Shown here in pieces: positions 5,287 to 63,487 of a stretch of 64,000 bases of DNA. This DNA comes from an uncultured virus (IMG/VR IMGVR_UViG_3300042402_002237) (Duplodnaviria; Heunggongvirae; Uroviricota; Caudoviricetes). Position numbers and translations under genes: made by a program. Within the stretch, counting starts at the first letter, position 1, and each line of letters starts with the position of its first letter. Under the pieces are notes generated by a model. That model did not search any database and was not told the origin of the DNA. It was given only the letters and a program-made list of their open reading frames with translations. The stretch is taken from the IMG/VR virus record IMGVR_UViG_3300042402_002237. One strand, 5' to 3'.

Positions 5287-5571
5287 ATGGATAAGTTAGA
5301 ACTATTTAACGAAACAATCAAACGAGCAAGGCCCGTCAGTGGTGACGAAGTTCAAGCCACGTCACTAGATCAACCAATTAATGAAATTGGTATTGATAGC
5401 CTAGATACGATTATGATTTCAGTTTATTTTTCTGAAATTTACGGGGTAACAGAAGAAAAAGCAAAAGAATTACAACCAACAACGCCAGGACAGTTTTTTG
5501 AATTGTATGAACAGCACGCAACCAAACATCCAAAAACTGTAAAAGAAGCATTAGATAATATTGAATTTTAA
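5287..5571 (+). CDS. acyl carrier protein-like
   Basis: 94 aa, acidic, GIDSLD phosphopantetheine-attachment motif; adjacent to a ketosynthase. Confidence 0.8.
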   Translation: MDKLELFNETIKRARPVSGDEVQATSLDQPINEIGIDSLDTIMISVYFSEIYGVTEEKAKELQPTTPGQFFELYEQHATKHPKTVKEALDNIEF

Positions 5572-5572
5572 A

Positions 5573-6700
5573 ATGAAAATTTACATCACTAAATACAAAA
5601 CGCTTTGCACAAAAGAAACTAAGGTATTGGGTGATTTGGTTTACCCACAACGAGTACATTGGATGCCAGAGTTATACACTCGAGTAAAAACGGGGCTGTC
5701 TTACGTGCCCCATGAAATGGCGAATCGTGTGGCTACAAAAGAAATGGTTGATTATGTCAAATCAAATCCAGTGGAAGGCAAGACAGGATTTTTGTTGGCC
5801 GCTGGGTCACAAGGATGGGCAGGGGGCAAAGCAAAAAGTCAAGACAAACCAAGCGAATTAGATTACAATTTCAAACTTGGAATTTTAACAATGACAAACA
5901 TTTTTGCAGGCCGTATAGCAGGAGTGTTTGAGGCGTATGACTACGTGGCGACTGACGCCAGTGCATGCGCAACGAGCATCAAGTGCATGATGGACGTCAA
6001 CAATTTAATTAACAACATGGGGTTTGATCGTGTCATTATGCTGGCTTTGGAAGATCCAACATCTAAACTAACGCTTGAATTTTTTGGTCAATCAAACGCT
6101 AACTTAGTATTAAAAGACGAAGAAGCAGGCGCGGTACCATCCGCATTTGACAGTAAAAATGGTGGGTTTATTATTGGGCAGGGTGCGGGTTTTGCCATAT
6201 TTGAATCTGAGCGTGCAGTACAAAAGAATGCCGTTAAGCCCGAGGCTGAACTAAAAAGTGCTTGGGTATCAGCGGAGCAATTATCAAACCCAATTGGTCA
6301 GCGTCCTGACGGACAGGGATATCAACGAGCTATTATGGGCGCGATTACACAAGCTAAATGTCAACCATCAGATATTAAAATTGTAAAGACACATGGCACC
6401 GGAACGCCGACTAATAATCAATCTGAAAAGAATGCGCTATTGTCAACGTTACGTGGTGGGTTTATTGCAACGTCGTACAAGCAACACATTGGACACACCG
6501 TTGCAGCTAGTGGATTGTTAGAAACCGGTTTAATTTTAGACGATATTAAAAAAGGAGTCATACCTGGGATTAAAAATAGAACAGAAAACGACGACACATT
6601 TATATCAAAAGATACTACGGCCCCCGATGGTTTATTAATGAGTTTAGCAGCCGGTATGGGAAATATTTACGCAGCAGCTATTTTTGACCCACGAGTATGA
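5573..6700 (+). CDS. beta-ketoacyl-ACP synthase (FabB/FabF/type II PKS KS-like)
   Basis: Cys in DASACATS, His in KTHGTGT, SYKQHIGH, GFIIGQGAG. Confidence 0.88.
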   Translation: MKIYITKYKTLCTKETKVLGDLVYPQRVHWMPELYTRVKTGLSYVPHEMANRVATKEMVDYVKSNPVEGKTGFLLAAGSQGWAGGKAKSQDKPSELDYNFKLGILTMTNIFAGRIAGVFEAYDYVATDASACATSIKCMMDVNNLINNMGFDRVIMLALEDPTSKLTLEFFGQSNANLVLKDEEAGAVPSAFDSKNGGFIIGQGAGFAIFESERAVQKNAVKPEAELKSAWVSAEQLSNPIGQRPDGQGYQRAIMGAITQAKCQPSDIKIVKTHGTGTPTNNQSEKNALLSTLRGGFIATSYKQHIGHTVAASGLLETGLILDDIKKGVIPGIKNRTENDDTFISKDTTAPDGLLMSLAAGMGNIYAAAIFDPRV

Positions 6701-8067: not shown

Positions 8068-8270
8068 AACAAGAATTATTAGATGATTTTAACGTGACGT
8101 TGGAGTTTTCTGTAAAGGAAATTAACGCGTTGCTAAACGTATTAGCGCAGTCGCCATTTATCCAGGTGGTTGGCTTTATTAACGAGATCCAGGCACAGGC
8201 CGGCCCACAGGTCGAGCAGGCAAAGAACAGCCTAGAGGCCGTTGAGAAGGCACAAAAAGATGAATCTTAA
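8064..8270 (+). CDS. hypothetical protein
   Basis: ORF, coupled. Confidence 0.6.
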   Translation: MKQELLDDFNVTLEFSVKEINALLNVLAQSPFIQVVGFINEIQAQAGPQVEQAKNSLEAVEKAQKDES

Positions 8271-8472
8271 AGATTTGTTAAACCGGGCCGGTATCCGTAA
8301 CGATATAGACAAGGCACTGGAGGACAAAGAGGCGGCCAAGGAGAAACAGATCCAGGAGATGGCCGGGGCAGTGACCCGCCTAATCATCAACGAGTCAATT
8401 AAAGAGGCCAAGGCTCGCGCTGCAGAGCGTGACAGGCTATTAATTAACCCGGATGGGGCGGAAAAGAAGTAG
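8260..8472 (+). CDS. hypothetical protein
   Basis: ORF from ATG 8260. Confidence 0.55.
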   Translation: MNLKDLLNRAGIRNDIDKALEDKEAAKEKQIQEMAGAVTRLIINESIKEAKARAAERDRLLINPDGAEKK

Positions 8473-8486
8473 ATTTTGCATTAGTA
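8456..8486 (+). promoter_or_regulatory. phage promoter GGGCG-N16-TGCATTAGTA
   Basis: Exact bipartite match. Confidence 0.75.
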
Positions 8487-8558
8487 GATATAGGGCTAGT
8501 AAGCTGTCGGGAGACACCCGAACGCCTTATTTTACATACACAAACACAGGAGAATTAC

Positions 8559-8816
8559 ATGAACCCATTTGAATTACGCTATGATTTACTCAAGACCTCC
8601 AAGGAGTTTTTGACCGAGCAATACAACGCCCAGCTAAAGGCATGGGAAGTGGCAGACGAGGCAGGTAAAAAACTGCTTGAGAAGGCCCCACAGTTCCCCA
8701 GCATGCACGAGATCATTGACAACGCGATCGAGATGAACAAGTTTATCAGCACCACGATCGAGGCACAATTGGTCGACGGCGTTAAGCGCTTTAACCGTAT
8801 CACAGCAGTATTTTAA
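8559..8816 (+). CDS. hypothetical phage protein (NPFELR.DLL family)
   Basis: CAGGAG RBS; recognisable phage motif. Confidence 0.7.
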   Translation: MNPFELRYDLLKTSKEFLTEQYNAQLKAWEVADEAGKKLLEKAPQFPSMHEIIDNAIEMNKFISTTIEAQLVDGVKRFNRITAVF

Positions 8817-8821
8817 TACCC

Positions 8822-8866
8822 GTTGCGACTTTTTAGCAGACGTTTGCAAGAAAGTCGCGACTTTTT
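8822..8866 (+). terminator. long hairpin followed by T-run (terminator or processing stem)
   Basis: GTTGCGACTTT...AAAGTCGCGAC followed by TTTTT. Confidence 0.45.
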
Positions 8867-8871
8867 AACAT

Positions 8872-8952
8872 GGGGTAGGTATAGTTTCGACGAGGGGCCA
8901 AGGCTGATATGCAACCCAGCGGACCACGGGGCAGTACCGTGCTACTCCACCA
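8872..8952 (+). ncRNA. tmRNA-like RNA reduced to the tRNA-like domain (no tag-coding domain)
   Basis: GGGGTAG/CTACTCC-ACCA acceptor stem with G3:U70, stemless D-loop ending TTCGA-C, GAC variable loop, T-arm CACGG-GGCAGTA-CCGTG. Confidence 0.8.
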
Positions 8953-9060
8953 AACACATGACAACAAAAGACGTCTTCTATTTTGCAACCGTACCAATCG
9001 CTTTGTTTGTAACCTATAAGTTACTACTAGAGCTTTGGTGCATAACTTACGGGATATTTT

Positions 9061-9210
9061 ATGGCAGCTAAACCTGGCCTCTATGCCAACATCCAAAAAA
9101 AGCGTGAACGTATCAAGGCCGGAAGTGGCGAGAAGATGCGCAAACCTGGCGACCCCGGCGCGCCCACATCCAAAGCATTTAAAGACTCTGCAAAGACAGC
9201 TAAAAAATAA
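9061..9210 (+). CDS. small basic phage protein (KPGLYANI..KR.RI)
   Basis: Read by hand, 49 aa; recognisable phage family; stop overlaps the next ATG. Confidence 0.7.
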   Translation: MAAKPGLYANIQKKRERIKAGSGEKMRKPGDPGAPTSKAFKDSAKTAKK

Positions 9211-9599
9211 TGGCAACTAAAAAAGCAAACCCGTCCAAGTACGATCCGGCTATGTGCGATCGCATGATCGAGCTGGGTAAGCTGGGCGCGTCACAGAAGA
9301 TGATCTGGTCTGACCTAAGCATTTCAAAGGGCACCGCAGAGAGCTGGAAAAAGAAGTACCCTGAGTTTGCCGAGGCGCTAGACCTATCCCTGGTCCACGC
9401 ACAGGCGTTCTGGGAGCGTGAGCTACTGGCAAACGTTGACAACAAGGGATACAACAGCCGGTTAGCTGAGATTGCGCTACGTGGCCAGTTCCAGCAAGAC
9501 TACCGAGAGACGCGGGATACTAAGATAGACCTCAAGGCAGAGGTTAAAGTAGACTTCCAAAAAGAGATAGCTAACTTGATTTCCGCCCTAAAGTCCTAA
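9210..9599 (+). CDS. terminase small subunit-like HTH protein
   Basis: PSKYDP..C...IELG..G......W..KYPEFAEA pattern. Confidence 0.6.
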   Translation: MATKKANPSKYDPAMCDRMIELGKLGASQKMIWSDLSISKGTAESWKKKYPEFAEALDLSLVHAQAFWERELLANVDNKGYNSRLAEIALRGQFQQDYRETRDTKIDLKAEVKVDFQKEIANLISALKS

Positions 9600-11364: not shown

Positions 11365-11431
11365 TATTTAGTAAAGGGTAGACGAACTGGCCCCTATTGA
11401 AGTCCAGTTCTACAGTTATAAAGGAATCAAC

Positions 11432-11953
11432 ATGGCACAAGCCACTACTAAAGTAAAAGTTGTAACCGGTAAAGTTCGTTTTTCTTATGCGAACGTATTC
11501 CAACCCGCCTCCTCAATCGAGGGTGGCACACCGAAGTACTCTGTATCAATCATCATCCCCAAGTCTGACAAGGACACCATCGCACGTCTTCAGAAAGCAT
11601 TTGAAGACACCAAGGCCGCGGCGTCTGCATACTTTGGTGGCGCGGTACCAAAGAACTTAAAGGGTGGCCTGCGTGACGGTGACGCAGAGAAGGACGACCC
11701 AGCGTACGCTAACAGCTACTTTATCAATGCAAACTCGGCACAAAAGCCTGGCGTTGTTGACGCCGACTTGAACCCGATCATTGACAGCAGCGAGTTTTAT
11801 AGCGGGTGCTATGGTCGCGCATCAATCACGTTCTACCCATACAATGCACAGGGCTCTAAGGGCATCGCATGTGGCTTGAACAACGTCCAGAAGTTAGAAG
11901 ACGGTGAGAAGTTAGGTGGTAGCACAACAGCAGCAGCCGACTTTGCGGTGTAA
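11432..11953 (+). CDS. DUF2815 ssDNA-binding protein (T7 gp2.5-like)
   Basis: VRFSYANVF, PKYSVS, LRDGD, FYSGCYGR, GIACGLNNVQK. Confidence 0.88.
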   Translation: MAQATTKVKVVTGKVRFSYANVFQPASSIEGGTPKYSVSIIIPKSDKDTIARLQKAFEDTKAAASAYFGGAVPKNLKGGLRDGDAEKDDPAYANSYFINANSAQKPGVVDADLNPIIDSSEFYSGCYGRASITFYPYNAQGSKGIACGLNNVQKLEDGEKLGGSTTAAADFAV

Positions 11954-27107: not shown

Positions 27108-29239
27108 GGACGCTCGTCGCCGTATTCTGCCGTAATCAGCAGGCGGCCCATCTCAAAGTTACCGTCGAGCACGTTGGACTCAAACTTAAGCCTAACCTCG
27201 CGGTGCTCTACGCGCAGGTCAATCTTACCGGTGTCTGGGTCAAAGTAAAATGGTCCAGAGGTCTCTGTATCTCCACGGGCAAACTTGCGGCCCAGAATAG
27301 TCATCGCCATCGTGCCGGACTGTACAAAGTCTGGCTCGACACGTCTTAGGTGCATGCGTCGATTAACGCCGGTTGGGCTATCTTGTGATGGTATCCCACC
27401 AACCCAGCTAATGTCGCAGGTCGTGATGCTAGAGGTTATGGCAAACTCTTGGTTAAACGTGATGGCGTTTGTGCCAAACTCATGCTGCCACAGTGGGTAG
27501 CCACCCTCAATATAATAGATGTAATCGCCGGCTACTTGTATTGGATCAAATGGCTCTTCTACCGTGATTAACGTCACACCCGCTGGGTTTGTGGCAATAA
27601 TCGCAGAGGTAAACATAAACACGCTGGTAATAATTTTATAGACAACTGGGTTGCCTGTGTTTACCAACGAAATATAATCGCCGGCACCAAAGGTAGCCGT
27701 AACGTCGCCGTTAATATATACCTGGTTGTTATTGGGTGGAGCCTCGCTGGGTGGCTCGTCAATTACTTCAAACGGAATACTAAATGTATTTAGATCTTCC
27801 CAGCCGGCCCAGATTGGTGTTGGGAATACCTCGGTGGTATAGCCACACGACCTGCGTGATCCAGGCGCGCTTCCGGCGTCGTACCAGATCTTATCTTTGA
27901 CGTTGTACACAATTGCGTCGGTGCACTCGGTGGCGTCACCGCGGGGATAAAAGAACCAGATCTCATTATACCGAGGTACTTTAGTTGCCCATACCTTTTG
28001 GCGCTGTACGAAGTTGAGGTTATCAAATAGCCAGTTTACGTTCTTATCATTTGGCAGTACAGAGACCGCACCATTGTATTGGTAGAAACGGTCGACACCC
28101 ATCCAGTAAAATATACCATCCATCTCAACAAAGCACGAGGATGATATTGTAGAGATCTGGCTAGAAATAATATCATAGCGCCAGTATAGCGGGGTAGTTC
28201 CAGTAAACGAGACACGGATCAAGCTATCGGTTGCCCAGAATAATCCAGACGGTGAGTTAGTACCACCACGCACCGGTATACCCTTAACAATCTTAGACGA
28301 GGCCATGTTGACCTGGTTAGCCGTTGGCCCGTTCCAGTCAGTAATTGTCTGTGTGTTGTAGTTTGCTAAAGTTGTGTTTGTGTCTACGTGGTTGTTGGCA
28401 ATAAATCCATCTGAACCGTACACAAATGTGAAGGGGTACAGCACACACACGCCACCATCTACCGTGATTGGGCGATAGGTTGGGTTTTGTCCGCCAGTGT
28501 CTGCCAGCCCATAAAAGTTCCACTCGTTTAGCGCATCTGGCAATAACCCACCAGTTAATACTTGGGTTTGTATGGCATTGTCAATGTTTACTAAATTACG
28601 CCCTGGGTGAGCTAATACTTGTAGTGATCCACCGGCGGGGGAGTACTGTAAGTCAAACTGCCACAACAAAGTTGGATCTGGTGTAAACGTTACGTCATAC
28701 AACGCCACGGTTGTTGGTGTTCCCGTAATGCTTGACGTTGTTACAATCACCGTCGTGTTTGGCGCGGTATATGACGAGCTAATAACCGTAGTTGCCGTGG
28801 TGGGGTCATCGTCAAATATAACCTCCATACCAGCAGGAAATGCTGCGGTCACATCGGTCGCCACAACAAACTGGCTAGTAGTGTTTGACACCAAGGTAAA
28901 CGGCGAGTATCCAGGTAAAATATTTACAGTAAGCGGACCACTGCCAACGCCGAACGTAGTGCCTGTTGTAAATACTTCTAAACCATATTGGTTGCCAACG
29001 AATACGTAGTTAACGCCGTTAAACGAGTTGGAGATCATACCGCGGGGGATGCCGGTAAACGTGGCAAACAGCTCACGGTATCCACCCATTTTTCTAGGTG
29101 TACCACGTTGAAAACGGCACCATTCTCCGTCACTAAACTCGCGTGACTCGAATACTGTGCCGTCTCGTTTTATGCCAGGCTGAACGCCAAGCGTGTAGAC
29201 CAGATTATACTGATCTGGTAGTTTGTTTTCTCCGGCCAT
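27104..29239 (-). CDS. tail nozzle / DNA-stabilisation protein-like
   Basis: 711 aa, beta-rich; W.RFQRG.PRKMGG, FYWMG, NEIWFFYP motifs; position. Confidence 0.6.
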   Translation of the reverse strand: MAGENKLPDQYNLVYTLGVQPGIKRDGTVFESREFSDGEWCRFQRGTPRKMGGYRELFATFTGIPRGMISNSFNGVNYVFVGNQYGLEVFTTGTTFGVGSGPLTVNILPGYSPFTLVSNTTSQFVVATDVTAAFPAGMEVIFDDDPTTATTVISSSYTAPNTTVIVTTSSITGTPTTVALYDVTFTPDPTLLWQFDLQYSPAGGSLQVLAHPGRNLVNIDNAIQTQVLTGGLLPDALNEWNFYGLADTGGQNPTYRPITVDGGVCVLYPFTFVYGSDGFIANNHVDTNTTLANYNTQTITDWNGPTANQVNMASSKIVKGIPVRGGTNSPSGLFWATDSLIRVSFTGTTPLYWRYDIISSQISTISSSCFVEMDGIFYWMGVDRFYQYNGAVSVLPNDKNVNWLFDNLNFVQRQKVWATKVPRYNEIWFFYPRGDATECTDAIVYNVKDKIWYDAGSAPGSRRSCGYTTEVFPTPIWAGWEDLNTFSIPFEVIDEPPSEAPPNNNQVYINGDVTATFGAGDYISLVNTGNPVVYKIITSVFMFTSAIIATNPAGVTLITVEEPFDPIQVAGDYIYYIEGGYPLWQHEFGTNAITFNQEFAITSSITTCDISWVGGIPSQDSPTGVNRRMHLRRVEPDFVQSGTMAMTILGRKFARGDTETSGPFYFDPDTGKIDLRVEHREVRLKFESNVLDGNFEMGRLLITAEYGDERP

Positions 29240-62751: not shown

Positions 62752-62940
62752 TTGTGGAGAGGCACCATTTTGAAAATCATCGGCGCATTTATTGTAATGA
62801 TCACTGGGTTTTGGTTTGCCCAAGGGATGTTTGATCTGTATACGATCTTGTGGTTTGTATTTGGGCTAGCAATGCTCATACCAACAGAAGTTTATAAAAC
62901 ATTATGGGAGCTATATGAAAGAAAACGACATTCTAAGTGA
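62752..62940 (+). CDS. small membrane protein (start may be TTG 62770)
   Basis: Two hydrophobic segments. Confidence 0.5.
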   Translation: MWRGTILKIIGAFIVMITGFWFAQGMFDLYTILWFVFGLAMLIPTEVYKTLWELYERKRHSK

Positions 62941-63487
62941 CTACCTCAAGTCGCTGTACGGCATCGAGCCGTTGACAGTGGAGGAAGAGCACGAGCTCGC
63001 CAAGAGGATTCAAGCAGGCGACGAGGGTGCACTTGAGCAGTTGATCAAGCACAACCTGCGCTTTGTGGTCTACGTCGTCCGTAAGATGACGGCGTGGAAC
63101 CACGGCAAGGTGCCAGTGGAGGACATGGTCGCCATGGGTAACGAGGCATTGTTTACGGCGGGTCGTAGGTGGGTGCCTAAGAACAACGCACGCTTTGCCA
63201 CATACGCCAAGACGTTTATTGAGAAGGGCGTACGGCGTGACCTAGACAACACGGCAAACATCATACGCCTGCCAATCAATATCATGGAGCAGGTAAAGAA
63301 GTTAAACTATACCGAGCGCTCGCTATCCCAAGTACTGGGGCGTAAGCCCAAGACGCACGAGATCGCCACGCTCATGGGCGTCACAGAGAGCAAGGTGCAC
63401 CAGTTGCAGGGATACATCGCACGTGAGCCAGTATCGCTCGACCACATCAACCAAGAGAAGTTTACCGAGGAGCATTTAGATGATTGA
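62915..63487 (+). CDS. sigma70-family factor, regions 1.2-3 only (lacks region 4)
   Basis: L..EEE.ELA, LI.HNLRFVV, ED....GN..L..A, RFATYA...I, IRLP, LGR.P...EIA, PVSLD then stop. Confidence 0.88.
   Translation: MKENDILSDYLKSLYGIEPLTVEEEHELAKRIQAGDEGALEQLIKHNLRFVVYVVRKMTAWNHGKVPVEDMVAMGNEALFTAGRRWVPKNNARFATYAKTFIEKGVRRDLDNTANIIRLPINIMEQVKKLNYTERSLSQVLGRKPKTHEIATLMGVTESKVHQLQGYIAREPVSLDHINQEKFTEEHLDD

Follow-up and report, generated by a model that had tools for sequence, protein, structure and literature searches.

A putative tmRNA gene with a tRNA-like domain only in a freshwater phage genome and its relatives in uncultured phages

Introduction

Mao et al. (2009) are reportedly the source cited for a tmRNA in mycobacteriophage DS6A that consists of the tRNA-like domain (TLD) only. 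Hudson, Lau and Williams (2014) give DS6A as "TLD only" (PMC4131195). According to two papers, a DS6A-like molecule inhibited tmRNA when it was tested in E. coli, and the inhibition was strong whether or not the molecule could be charged, perhaps through titration of SmpB (PMC4131195, PMC11915505). The 2025 tmRNA database paper, which takes its viruses from RefSeq only, gives 9 "Standard, no CDS" tmRNAs and 79 bacteriophage sequences (PMC11915505). The same paper describes the jakobid and oomycete mitochondrial tmRNAs (RF02544) and plastid forms of about 65 nt as TLDs that have no tag frame and whose SmpB is encoded elsewhere (PMC11915505). Two-piece ssrA genes are carried by the OM43 phage Melnitz and by pelagimyophages, and these are thought to manipulate host trans-translation (PMC9004378). 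In the literature searched for a wide phage family of TLD-only tmRNAs, only mentions of DS6A were found.

Nearly all bacteria carry out trans-translation, which is also a drug target. To our knowledge, the way in which phages deal with it is poorly understood. Alanyl-tRNA synthetase recognizes the G3:U70 pair together with the discriminator A73. EF-Tu contacts the acceptor and T arms, and SmpB contacts the D-loop, the GAC triplet, and P2a of tmRNA. Here, an element in the genome of an uncultured phage is compared with these systems. The window is the whole stretch of DNA that was analysed, 64,000 nt in length. A first-pass annotation of its letters had noticed the element and had known of no phage example. 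This was wrong, as DS6A is in print as "TLD only" in two papers (PMC4131195, PMC11915505).

Sequence and Fold of the Element

The element lies on the plus strand at 8872..8952, is 81 nt long, and encodes its own CCA. Its sequence, its scores with two covariance models (R1 and R2), and its near-invariance among relatives make it very probable that this is a TLD-only (CDS-less) tmRNA gene whose tag-coding domain is missing. All of the parts described here are on the same strand. The 5' strand of the acceptor stem, GGGGUAG, is at 8872..8878 and contains G3 of the G3:U70 pair, which is present in 89 of 89 aligned members. The 3' strand, CUACUCC with U70, occupies 8942..8952 together with A73 and CCA, as read from the sequence and from Rfam. 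The two strands form 7 bp. The D-loop at 8879..8890 is 12 nt long, ends in GUUUCGA, and is stemless in both the sequence and the fold. The GAC "variable-loop" triplet is read at 8922..8924, directly 5' of the T-arm. The T-arm, CACGG-GGCAGUA-CCGUG at 8925..8941, has a T-loop that is of the alphaproteobacterial type according to the sequence, Rfam, and bacterial loci. A direct read of 8872-8952 agreed exactly with the 81-nt length, the 7-bp stem, G3:U70, A73, and CCA that had first been described, and it also confirmed the unpaired D-loop ending in UUCGA-C, the GAC, and the T-arm.

About 30 nt had been estimated to stand in place of the pseudoknot and ORF region, and 29 nt were measured between GAC and GGAC. 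There is thus no room for a tag frame or a pseudoknot. No mRNA-like domain (resume codon, tag frame, and stop codon) was found in this 29-nt interior, and ARAGORN gave no tag. The interior appears to form P2. P2a has seven positions in the minimum-energy fold, in which a pair forms between the C of GAC and the first G of GGAC. Its 5' strand is at 8891..8897 (the C of GAC plus GAGGGG; fold and R2 alignment) and its 3' strand is at 8915..8921 (CCCAGC plus the first G of GGAC; fold and family pair counts). The fold and R2 both place a tandem A·G/G·A mismatch in P2a, with A22 and G23 opposite G48 and A47, and these two pairs are non-standard. P2b is predicted by the fold, the relatives, and the family alignment to be a short closing hairpin, GC-UGAUAU-GC, at 8903..8912. 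Its loop carries two of the three positions that vary in the window's family.

The element is therefore in one piece of less than about 90 nt, with its 5' half before its 3' half and a short hairpin closing P2. The minimum-energy fold of the single sequence (-24.5 kcal/mol) has the same layout as that read by eye. Its energy is no better than that of shuffled versions of the 81 nt (z 0.37), and thus fold energy alone proves nothing about the element.

Searches for tRNA and tmRNA Genes

Both ARAGORN and Rfam with Infernal had been suggested as checks. ARAGORN found no tRNA or tmRNA across the whole 64 kb. Rfam at its gathering thresholds did not match the element, and the sole match in the window was a DUF2815 RNA at 11375-11434. 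A permissive Rfam search was made of the 261 nt from 8780 to 9040. Here, alpha_tmRNA matched 8913-8952 and the DNA downstream with 23.8 bits (E 1.8e-5), which is below its gathering score of 50 and concerns the 3' half of the element only. The same half (8913-8952) was matched by tmRNA_permuted with 15.5 bits, also below gathering. The mitochondrial tmRNA model (RF02544) had no match at E<=10 in 8780-9040, and this is a weak negative since overlapping matches of the same clan are hidden. The part that aligned to alpha_tmRNA is the half made up of CGGAC, the T-arm, and CUCCACCA. Thus, half of the element is recognizable as an alphaproteobacterial tmRNA 3' end, but the element is not a full tmRNA.

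The acceptor stem, G3:U70, the discriminator A, CCA, the T-arm, and the stemless D-loop of a tRNA-like domain are all present in the element. Together with the match to R2 and the empty ARAGORN result, these features support the claim of the first-pass annotation that this is the tRNA-like domain of a tmRNA without its tag-coding domain. The above-chance status of the element rests on the Rfam match of the 3' half, the invariance in 29 contigs, the R2 score, and the alphaproteobacterial T-loop.

The chance that the element is an odd but ordinary tRNA-Ala, or part of the 82-aa ORF at 8823-9071, appears to be next to negligible. G3:U70, A73, and CCA would suit such a tRNA, and the open frame does span the element. 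However, a D-stem and an anticodon arm with a 7-nt loop were looked for and are absent from both the sequence and the fold. ARAGORN called no tRNA here and made no call in 87 of the 88 unique members of the wider family. R1 scores true tRNAs at 23-39 bits and the element at 87.5 bits. Finally, the pattern of nucleotide conservation is RNA-like and not codon-like.

Conservation in Related Viral Contigs

Close copies were sought with a pattern that fixes 28 of the 81 positions and leaves 53 free. Matches were found in 29 viral contigs, among which only three of the 53 free positions vary. These are G23, G35, and U37, and all of them are in a mismatch or a loop. The 5' strand is the same in 29 of 29 contigs, and the 3' strand and CCA are the same in all 28 that reach that far. 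The window lineage was found in lake metagenomes of many studies and is an abundant freshwater phage lineage. A 22-kb fragment, the record nearest to the window, has no copy of the element.

The surroundings of the element are far more variable. Full flanks are available for 25 of the 29 related loci. In a comparison of these with the window, 3 of 81 columns varied in the element, 174 of 316 in the upstream gene, 67 of 77 in the hairpin region, and 104 of 148 in the next 120 nt downstream. Conservation stops at G1 and at CCA wherever the flanks have been replaced. The DNA 3' of CCA is unrelated in seven of the related loci, and the element is kept in these. The upstream hairpin differs in two related loci or has a tRNA-Thr gene in its place, and in one relative this tRNA-Thr ends 5 nt before G1 of the element. 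Such near-invariance beside diverging flanks rules out both the spanning ORF (8823-9071) and a decaying remnant. It is evidence for what would be a discrete and selected RNA module. No covariation was found inside the window's own family, as its three variable positions are unpaired or in a mismatch. Structural support therefore rests on other lineages.

The same data bear on the idea that the element is a mere remnant. It would then be a tmRNA gene in decay, or an attachment site copied from the 3' end of a host ssrA. tmRNA genes are common integration sites and phages may carry ssrA fragments (PMC9004378), and the 3' half of the element does resemble alphaproteobacterial tmRNA. Such an origin is nevertheless extremely improbable. 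The element is complete and in standard order, whereas the host-type genes are permuted and have the 5' half downstream. Its exact 28-nt 3' end has no match in the genomes of 185,579 species (genome_contigs), and it is thus not a recent copy of the gene of a sequenced host. An integrase was not found among the 101 window ORFs scanned. Near-invariance beside diverging flanks is the opposite of decay.

A Wider Family in Uncultured Phages

With a looser pattern that keeps the alpha-type T-loop, 35 loci were obtained. The acceptor stem is a perfect 7 bp in 33 of these, which consist of 28 of the window's family and five from three other lineages (L033/L055, L037/L063, and L054). A second pattern, with the standard T-loop, 15-45 nt between TTCGAC and GGAC, and no constraint on the 5' strand, found 105 loci in viral contigs. 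A perfect 7-bp acceptor stem lies 6-11 nt before TTCGAC in 95 of the 104 loci that have upstream sequence. By our own arithmetic, about 2% of loci would have a 7/7 stem by chance at one of the 16 offsets that were tried. Every one of these 95 loci has G3:U70. The GAC triplet is fixed by the scan patterns, so its conservation among these matches is not independent. These counts indicate that the putative TLD-only device is common and diverse in uncultured phages, with at least 95 loci on one strict pattern.

Loose scans gave about 100 further elements of the same build, which are very diverse and 67-90 nt long. There are 88 unique elements, with lengths of 67-90 nt and D-loops of 11-16 nt. True tRNA genes are present in the fetched flank of 31 of 128 family loci, and they often abut the element on the same strand. 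In six loci, ARAGORN stretched the 3' half of the element into a false full tmRNA with "Tag not identified". Since ARAGORN misses or misextends these elements, they are probably under-annotated. The P2 interior of the window element is very similar to that of L075, an element with a standard T-loop. This likeness hints that the type of T-loop may switch within one lineage.

Stop triplets were counted as well. They occur in 74 of the 88 elements, as compared with 62.3 +/- 3.8 in shuffled sequences. The idea of a built-in stop codon was not adopted, as stop triplets are only mildly enriched and are missing from 14 elements.

Other searches say little about how far the family extends. When the element and a standard-type relative were compared with 50,697 phage records by BLAST, no useful match was obtained; the queries are short and diverse, and the search is uninformative on isolates. 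R1 had no matches at E<=1e-7 in 151 sampled alphaproteobacterial genomes, an empty answer that is uninformative with only 30 candidates scored per genome. The alpha-type scan of genome_contigs was swamped by the permuted tmRNA genes of hosts and is likewise uninformative on bacterial mini-tmRNAs.

Covariation and Covariance Models

Pairing was counted in two ways. The first count used fixed anchors and involved no model. P2a positions 1-5 are 93% paired, as compared with 32-43% when the partner is slid, and five or six types of pair occur at each of these positions. For the three T-stem pairs that the patterns leave free, pairing is 100% and four types occur. The second count used a model-fitted alignment of 89 sequences, which leans toward structure. 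In it, 97.4% of the pair cells are paired, as compared with 69.1% in shuffled and 45-55% in slid alignments. Changes on both sides (compensatory changes) are found in 15 of 20 pairs. P2b is 88% paired and both of its pairs have changed on both sides. Pairing in the acceptor stem reaches 99%, and compensatory changes are seen there too. Collection of homologues and a covariation check had been called for at the outset, and this pairing holds across lineages.

G3:U70 is found in 89 of 89 aligned members, while acceptor pairs 5 and 6 vary freely. None of the scan patterns fixes these three pairs. A loss of G3:U70 in homologues, which had been named as a reason to give up the proposal, was thus looked for and was not seen in this alignment.

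R2 was built solely from 80 standard-T-loop elements of other phages, and the window's family was left out. It scores the window element at 56.6 bits (E 2e-12), its sole match in the window at E<=1. It gives the DS6A TLD-only RNA 63.3 bits, other alpha-type elements 54-65 bits, and tRNAs and permuted host tmRNA genes 30 bits or less. R1 gives DS6A 55.2 bits. Since R2 recovers both the window element and the published DS6A RNA, the window element belongs to the DS6A kind.

Genome Setting

The window covers nearly all of a phage genome; for a relative 62,851 bp long, completeness is rated at 97%. The plus strand has a replication module with primase, helicase, exonuclease, gp2.5-like SSB, ribonucleotide reductase, and DNA polymerase A. 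The minus strand has the genes for structural proteins and for packaging. The element is located in the early/replication arm. A sigma-70-like protein is encoded by the phage at 62915-63487. The large terminase is nearest to those of the Caulobacter phages GB2A, RLK, KcrB, and RW (42% identity), followed by Brevundimonas and roseobacter phages. This Caulobacter-phage-like terminase fits an alphaproteobacterial host. The alpha-type T-loop also fits a phage that may be tuned to such a host. By terminase, the closest relatives in culture are Caulobacter phage GB2A and Brevundimonas phage Polewnik. Neither has the element, and it is therefore dispensable for that kind of phage.

An ORF of 85 aa with no family match lies upstream at 8559..8816 on the plus strand. 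It is followed by a long hairpin and U5 at 8822..8866 (plus strand; -22.3 kcal/mol, z -5.8), which end 5 nt before the element. The long hairpin that had been placed at 8822-8861 is thus real. It looks like a putative intrinsic terminator of the gene at 8559-8816. Downstream, a small plus-strand ORF at 8958..9071 starts 5 nt after CCA and encodes a hydrophobic peptide of 37 aa. Its product of 36-38 aa is conserved in 20 relatives. A phage promoter had also been proposed at 8456, and it finds no support in a sigma-70 scan of 8200-9300, which gave 0 sites. A promoter overlapping the hairpin, TTTGCA-17-TAACAT, was picked out by eye and rejected because transcription would begin inside the acceptor stem.

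Metatranscriptome contigs cover the element in three runs from three studies, all of them RNA libraries that may contain DNA. Contig X15 covers 8837-8971 with identical sequence and has adapter letters beyond 8971. Contigs X16 and X17 extend over 8843-9064 and have 21 differences, all of them outside 8872-8952. These contigs show neither transcription nor RNA ends.

The position between the hairpin and the small ORF (8958-9071) could suggest that the element is a processing signal only. RNase P and the 3' enzymes would then cut an operon transcript, and the RNA released would have no role. Contigs of relatives from RNA libraries (which may contain DNA) do span the hairpin, the element, and the downstream genes. 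This explanation is very improbable, however. The UUCGA/GAC core of tmRNA and G3:U70 would be needless in a processing signal. The element is kept where the downstream ORF has been replaced (seven relatives) or the hairpin has been swapped for a tRNA, and in other phages it stands among tRNA genes as one more gene.

Proposed Mechanism

On balance, the element probably acts as an alanine-charged competitor that draws on the host's SmpB and EF-Tu and separates rescue from tagging, by analogy with what is known of tmRNA. Host RNase P, cutting at G1, and the tRNA-processing enzymes would excise the RNA from a longer transcript, with CCA already encoded. Host alanyl-tRNA synthetase could then charge it through G3:U70 and A73. 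Host SmpB would bind at the D-loop, GAC, and P2a, and EF-Tu at the acceptor and T arms. Where ribosomes have stalled on broken mRNAs and their A site is empty, the complex would enter that site and compete there with the host's two-piece tmRNA. At the stalled ribosome the nascent chain would pass to the charged TLD. Peptidyl transfer to a TLD-only tmRNA has been seen in vitro, as reported in a paper that cites Shimizu and Ueda 2006 (PMC3895274). As there is no message, no degradation tag would be added. During infection, rescue would thus be either blocked or no longer coupled to tagging and proteolysis.

The tRNA genes that abut many family elements support tRNA-like handling. A scan of 101 window ORFs detected no SmpB, which supports dependence on the SmpB of the host. 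A point that counts against the mechanism is the terminator-like hairpin 5 nt upstream together with the 0 sigma-70 sites in 8200-9300. Expression would thus need either read-through or a promoter that is invisible to the scan. The phage does encode a sigma-like factor of its own.

The invariance of G3:U70 beside freely covarying pairs suggests that the charged form is under selection. This argues against a pure SmpB sponge, in which an uncharged RNA would soak up host SmpB and never enter the ribosome. A sponge would account for the D-loop and GAC core being kept. It would have no need of G3:U70 (89 of 89 members), A73, an encoded CCA, or a perfect 7-bp acceptor stem, and this stem shows 99% pairing and compensatory changes across the family. 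A sponge is thus improbable. According to the papers on it, the DS6A-like molecule inhibits even when it is not chargeable, and entry into the ribosome is therefore not required for that effect (PMC4131195, PMC11915505).

The invariant G3:U70 does not decide between jamming and tag-free rescue. In the latter, the charged TLD and host SmpB would free ribosomes productively with one or several alanines added. The chain would then be released by a host factor or by drop-off, giving extra rescue capacity without a mark for proteolysis. The same evidence of TLD identity that underlies the charged competitor applies here, and G3:U70 in 89 of 89 argues for an active charged form. The in vitro peptidyl transfer to TLD-only RNA would also suit such rescue (PMC3895274). 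Two other papers give further support: tag-less mitochondrial tmRNAs are conserved with SmpB and thought to aid with incomplete mRNAs (PMC11915505), and full tmRNAs are found in many phages, so rescue capacity seems useful (PMC9004378). On the other side, the one molecule of this kind that was tested inhibited tmRNA in E. coli (PMC4131195, PMC11915505). Not every member has a stop triplet of its own; the counts are 74 of 88 elements and, for shuffled sequences, 62.3 +/- 3.8. We know of no release step for peptidyl-TLD without a stop codon. Productive tag-free rescue is thus rather unlikely here, and the charged competitor is the reading that is preferred.

Possible Significance

That charging matters is a clear and testable prediction that follows from the invariant G3:U70. 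The window element would place a DS6A-type device in an abundant freshwater phage lineage with a T-loop of the alphaproteobacterial type. A broader reading, which is tentative and more doubtful than the charged competitor, is that the phage mini-tmRNAs are a large family of working rescue RNAs that has gone unrecognized in the literature, and that they are tuned to their hosts and are not decoys. If this is true, the alanine-charged RNA and host SmpB would clear stalled ribosomes with the addition of alanine only, once or in repeated rounds. The phage would then regain ribosomes without the degradation tag of the host. Host tuning would possibly be reflected in the window element by an L075-like P2 interior combined with an alphaproteobacterial T-loop, in a one-piece form unlike that of the likely hosts.

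Comparison with Known Systems

The full-length phage tmRNAs of the OM43 phage Melnitz and the pelagimyophages are similar to the window element in being phage-borne, of the alphaproteobacterial type, and aquatic (PMC9004378). In contrast to the window element, they keep the tag-coding piece and can be detected with ARAGORN. The mitochondrial and plastid tmRNAs share with it a TLD that has no tag frame and relies on an SmpB encoded elsewhere (PMC11915505). Unlike the window element, they are usually permuted, AT-rich, and organellar.

Alphaproteobacterial tmRNA (RF01849) has the T-loop GGC(A/G)GUA, and the 3' half of the window element, CGGAC...CUCCACCA, aligns to its consensus. The GGCAGUA-type T-loop had been called typical of alphaproteobacteria, and this held: the Rfam alpha consensus is GGCgGUA, and among the matches listed, 101 of 120 bacterial loci have GGCAGUA or GGCGGUA with the 5' strand 25-58 nt downstream of CCA. 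The titles of the bacterial loci that were read among these matches are nearly all alphaproteobacterial, by impression and not by tally. The host genes of RF01849 are circularly permuted, with the acceptor piece first, and include a tag frame and pseudoknots. Neither of these features is found in the window element, which is a single piece in standard order with no message. The D-loop of the host loci that were read ends in AUCGAC, while that of the window element ends in UUCGAC. In the alpha-type pattern matches listed, the permuted acceptor piece of the host has TTCGAC in a hairpin loop. The alphaproteobacterial two-piece tmRNA is likely to be the host molecule with which the element would compete.

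DS6A is among the closest of the known systems. An R1 search of DS6A located its element as 83 nt, unannotated, between gp33 and gp34. Like the window element, it is a phage-encoded, one-piece RNA of about 80 nt in standard order with no tag frame. Both have a 7-bp acceptor stem with G3:U70, a stemless D-loop, a T-arm, and a short P2 hairpin of similar content, and both are full-length matches to R1 and R2 alike. The two differ in several details. The D-loop has GGUCGAC in DS6A and GUUUCGAC in the window element, and the triplet before the T-arm is CAC in DS6A and GAC in the window element. DS6A has the standard T-loop UUCGAUU, whereas the window element has the alpha-type GGCAGUA. CCA is encoded in the window element but not in DS6A. 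DS6A has an actinobacterial host and an integrase; the window is from a freshwater phage with a Caulobacter-phage-like terminase, and no integrase was found among the 101 ORFs scanned in it. The strict regular expression misses DS6A, in which the D-loop, GAC, and CCA differ, whereas the covariance model finds it. The family looks far larger than the searched literature would suggest. Judging from sequence and model scores, the window element is a further, putative case of the known but barely documented DS6A-type kind.

Surroundings of the mini-tmRNA gene

Only 5 nt beyond its CCA end, the 81-nt mini-tmRNA (window 8872-8952) is followed by the start of a conserved gene for a hydrophobic peptide of 36-38 amino acids (window 8958-9071, + strand). 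No Shine-Dalgarno sequence is visible before this gene. The peptide gene is kept in 20 relatives, and in 7 unrelated DNA is found instead. A scan of window 8200-9300 for the sigma-70 consensus identified no promoter near the element. This may be because the phage encodes a sigma-70-like protein of its own, containing regions 1.2, 2 and 3 (window 62915-63487, + strand).

The early region of the phage encodes a protein of 379 amino acids that contains both beta-ketoacyl synthase domains (window 5561-6700, + strand), which is unusual for a phage. Directly 5' of a gp2.5-like SSB gene (window 11432-11953), with a small overlap, is an RNA motif of the DUF2815 type (window 11375-11434, + strand; 75 bits with Rfam RF03084).

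Family members and their annotation

Very short mini-tmRNAs, of 67-69 nt, were found in five viral contigs (L093, L100, L113, L122, and L108). In these, only 15-16 nt separate GAC from GGAC, and in two of them ARAGORN wrongly called an overlapping tRNA-Glu. At the viral loci L067, L081, L152, L095, L140, and L145, ARAGORN reported a false tmRNA of 324-396 nt that was anchored on the 3' half of the mini-tmRNA, with "Tag not identified". Thus, some of the phage tmRNAs annotated in databases may really be TLD-only genes. The published TLD-only tmRNA of mycobacteriophage DS6A is located between gp33 and gp34 (DNA pol III) at 28478-28560 of GenBank record JN698994, where it is not annotated. DS6A also encodes an RtcB-like RNA ligase (gp76).

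Interior motifs and T-loop type

Many members conserve a UAAA(R)CC internal-loop motif just 3' of P2a, the helix after the D-loop (alignments A1 and A4). The interior shows a mild enrichment of stop triplets (74 of 88 elements, compared with 62.3 +/- 3.8 in shuffles), which most commonly lie 6 nt downstream of GAC. In the window family, each of the four loop variants retains a UGA or UAA, always at one position. Where standard-type D-loops carry GG, three of four alpha-type lineages possess a single G. The window element has an alpha-type T-loop, whereas the viral locus L075 (1501-1580) has a standard one, yet their P2 interiors are very similar (CCAA.GC.UGAU..GCAACCC). This sequence likeness suggests that T-loop type could change inside one lineage.
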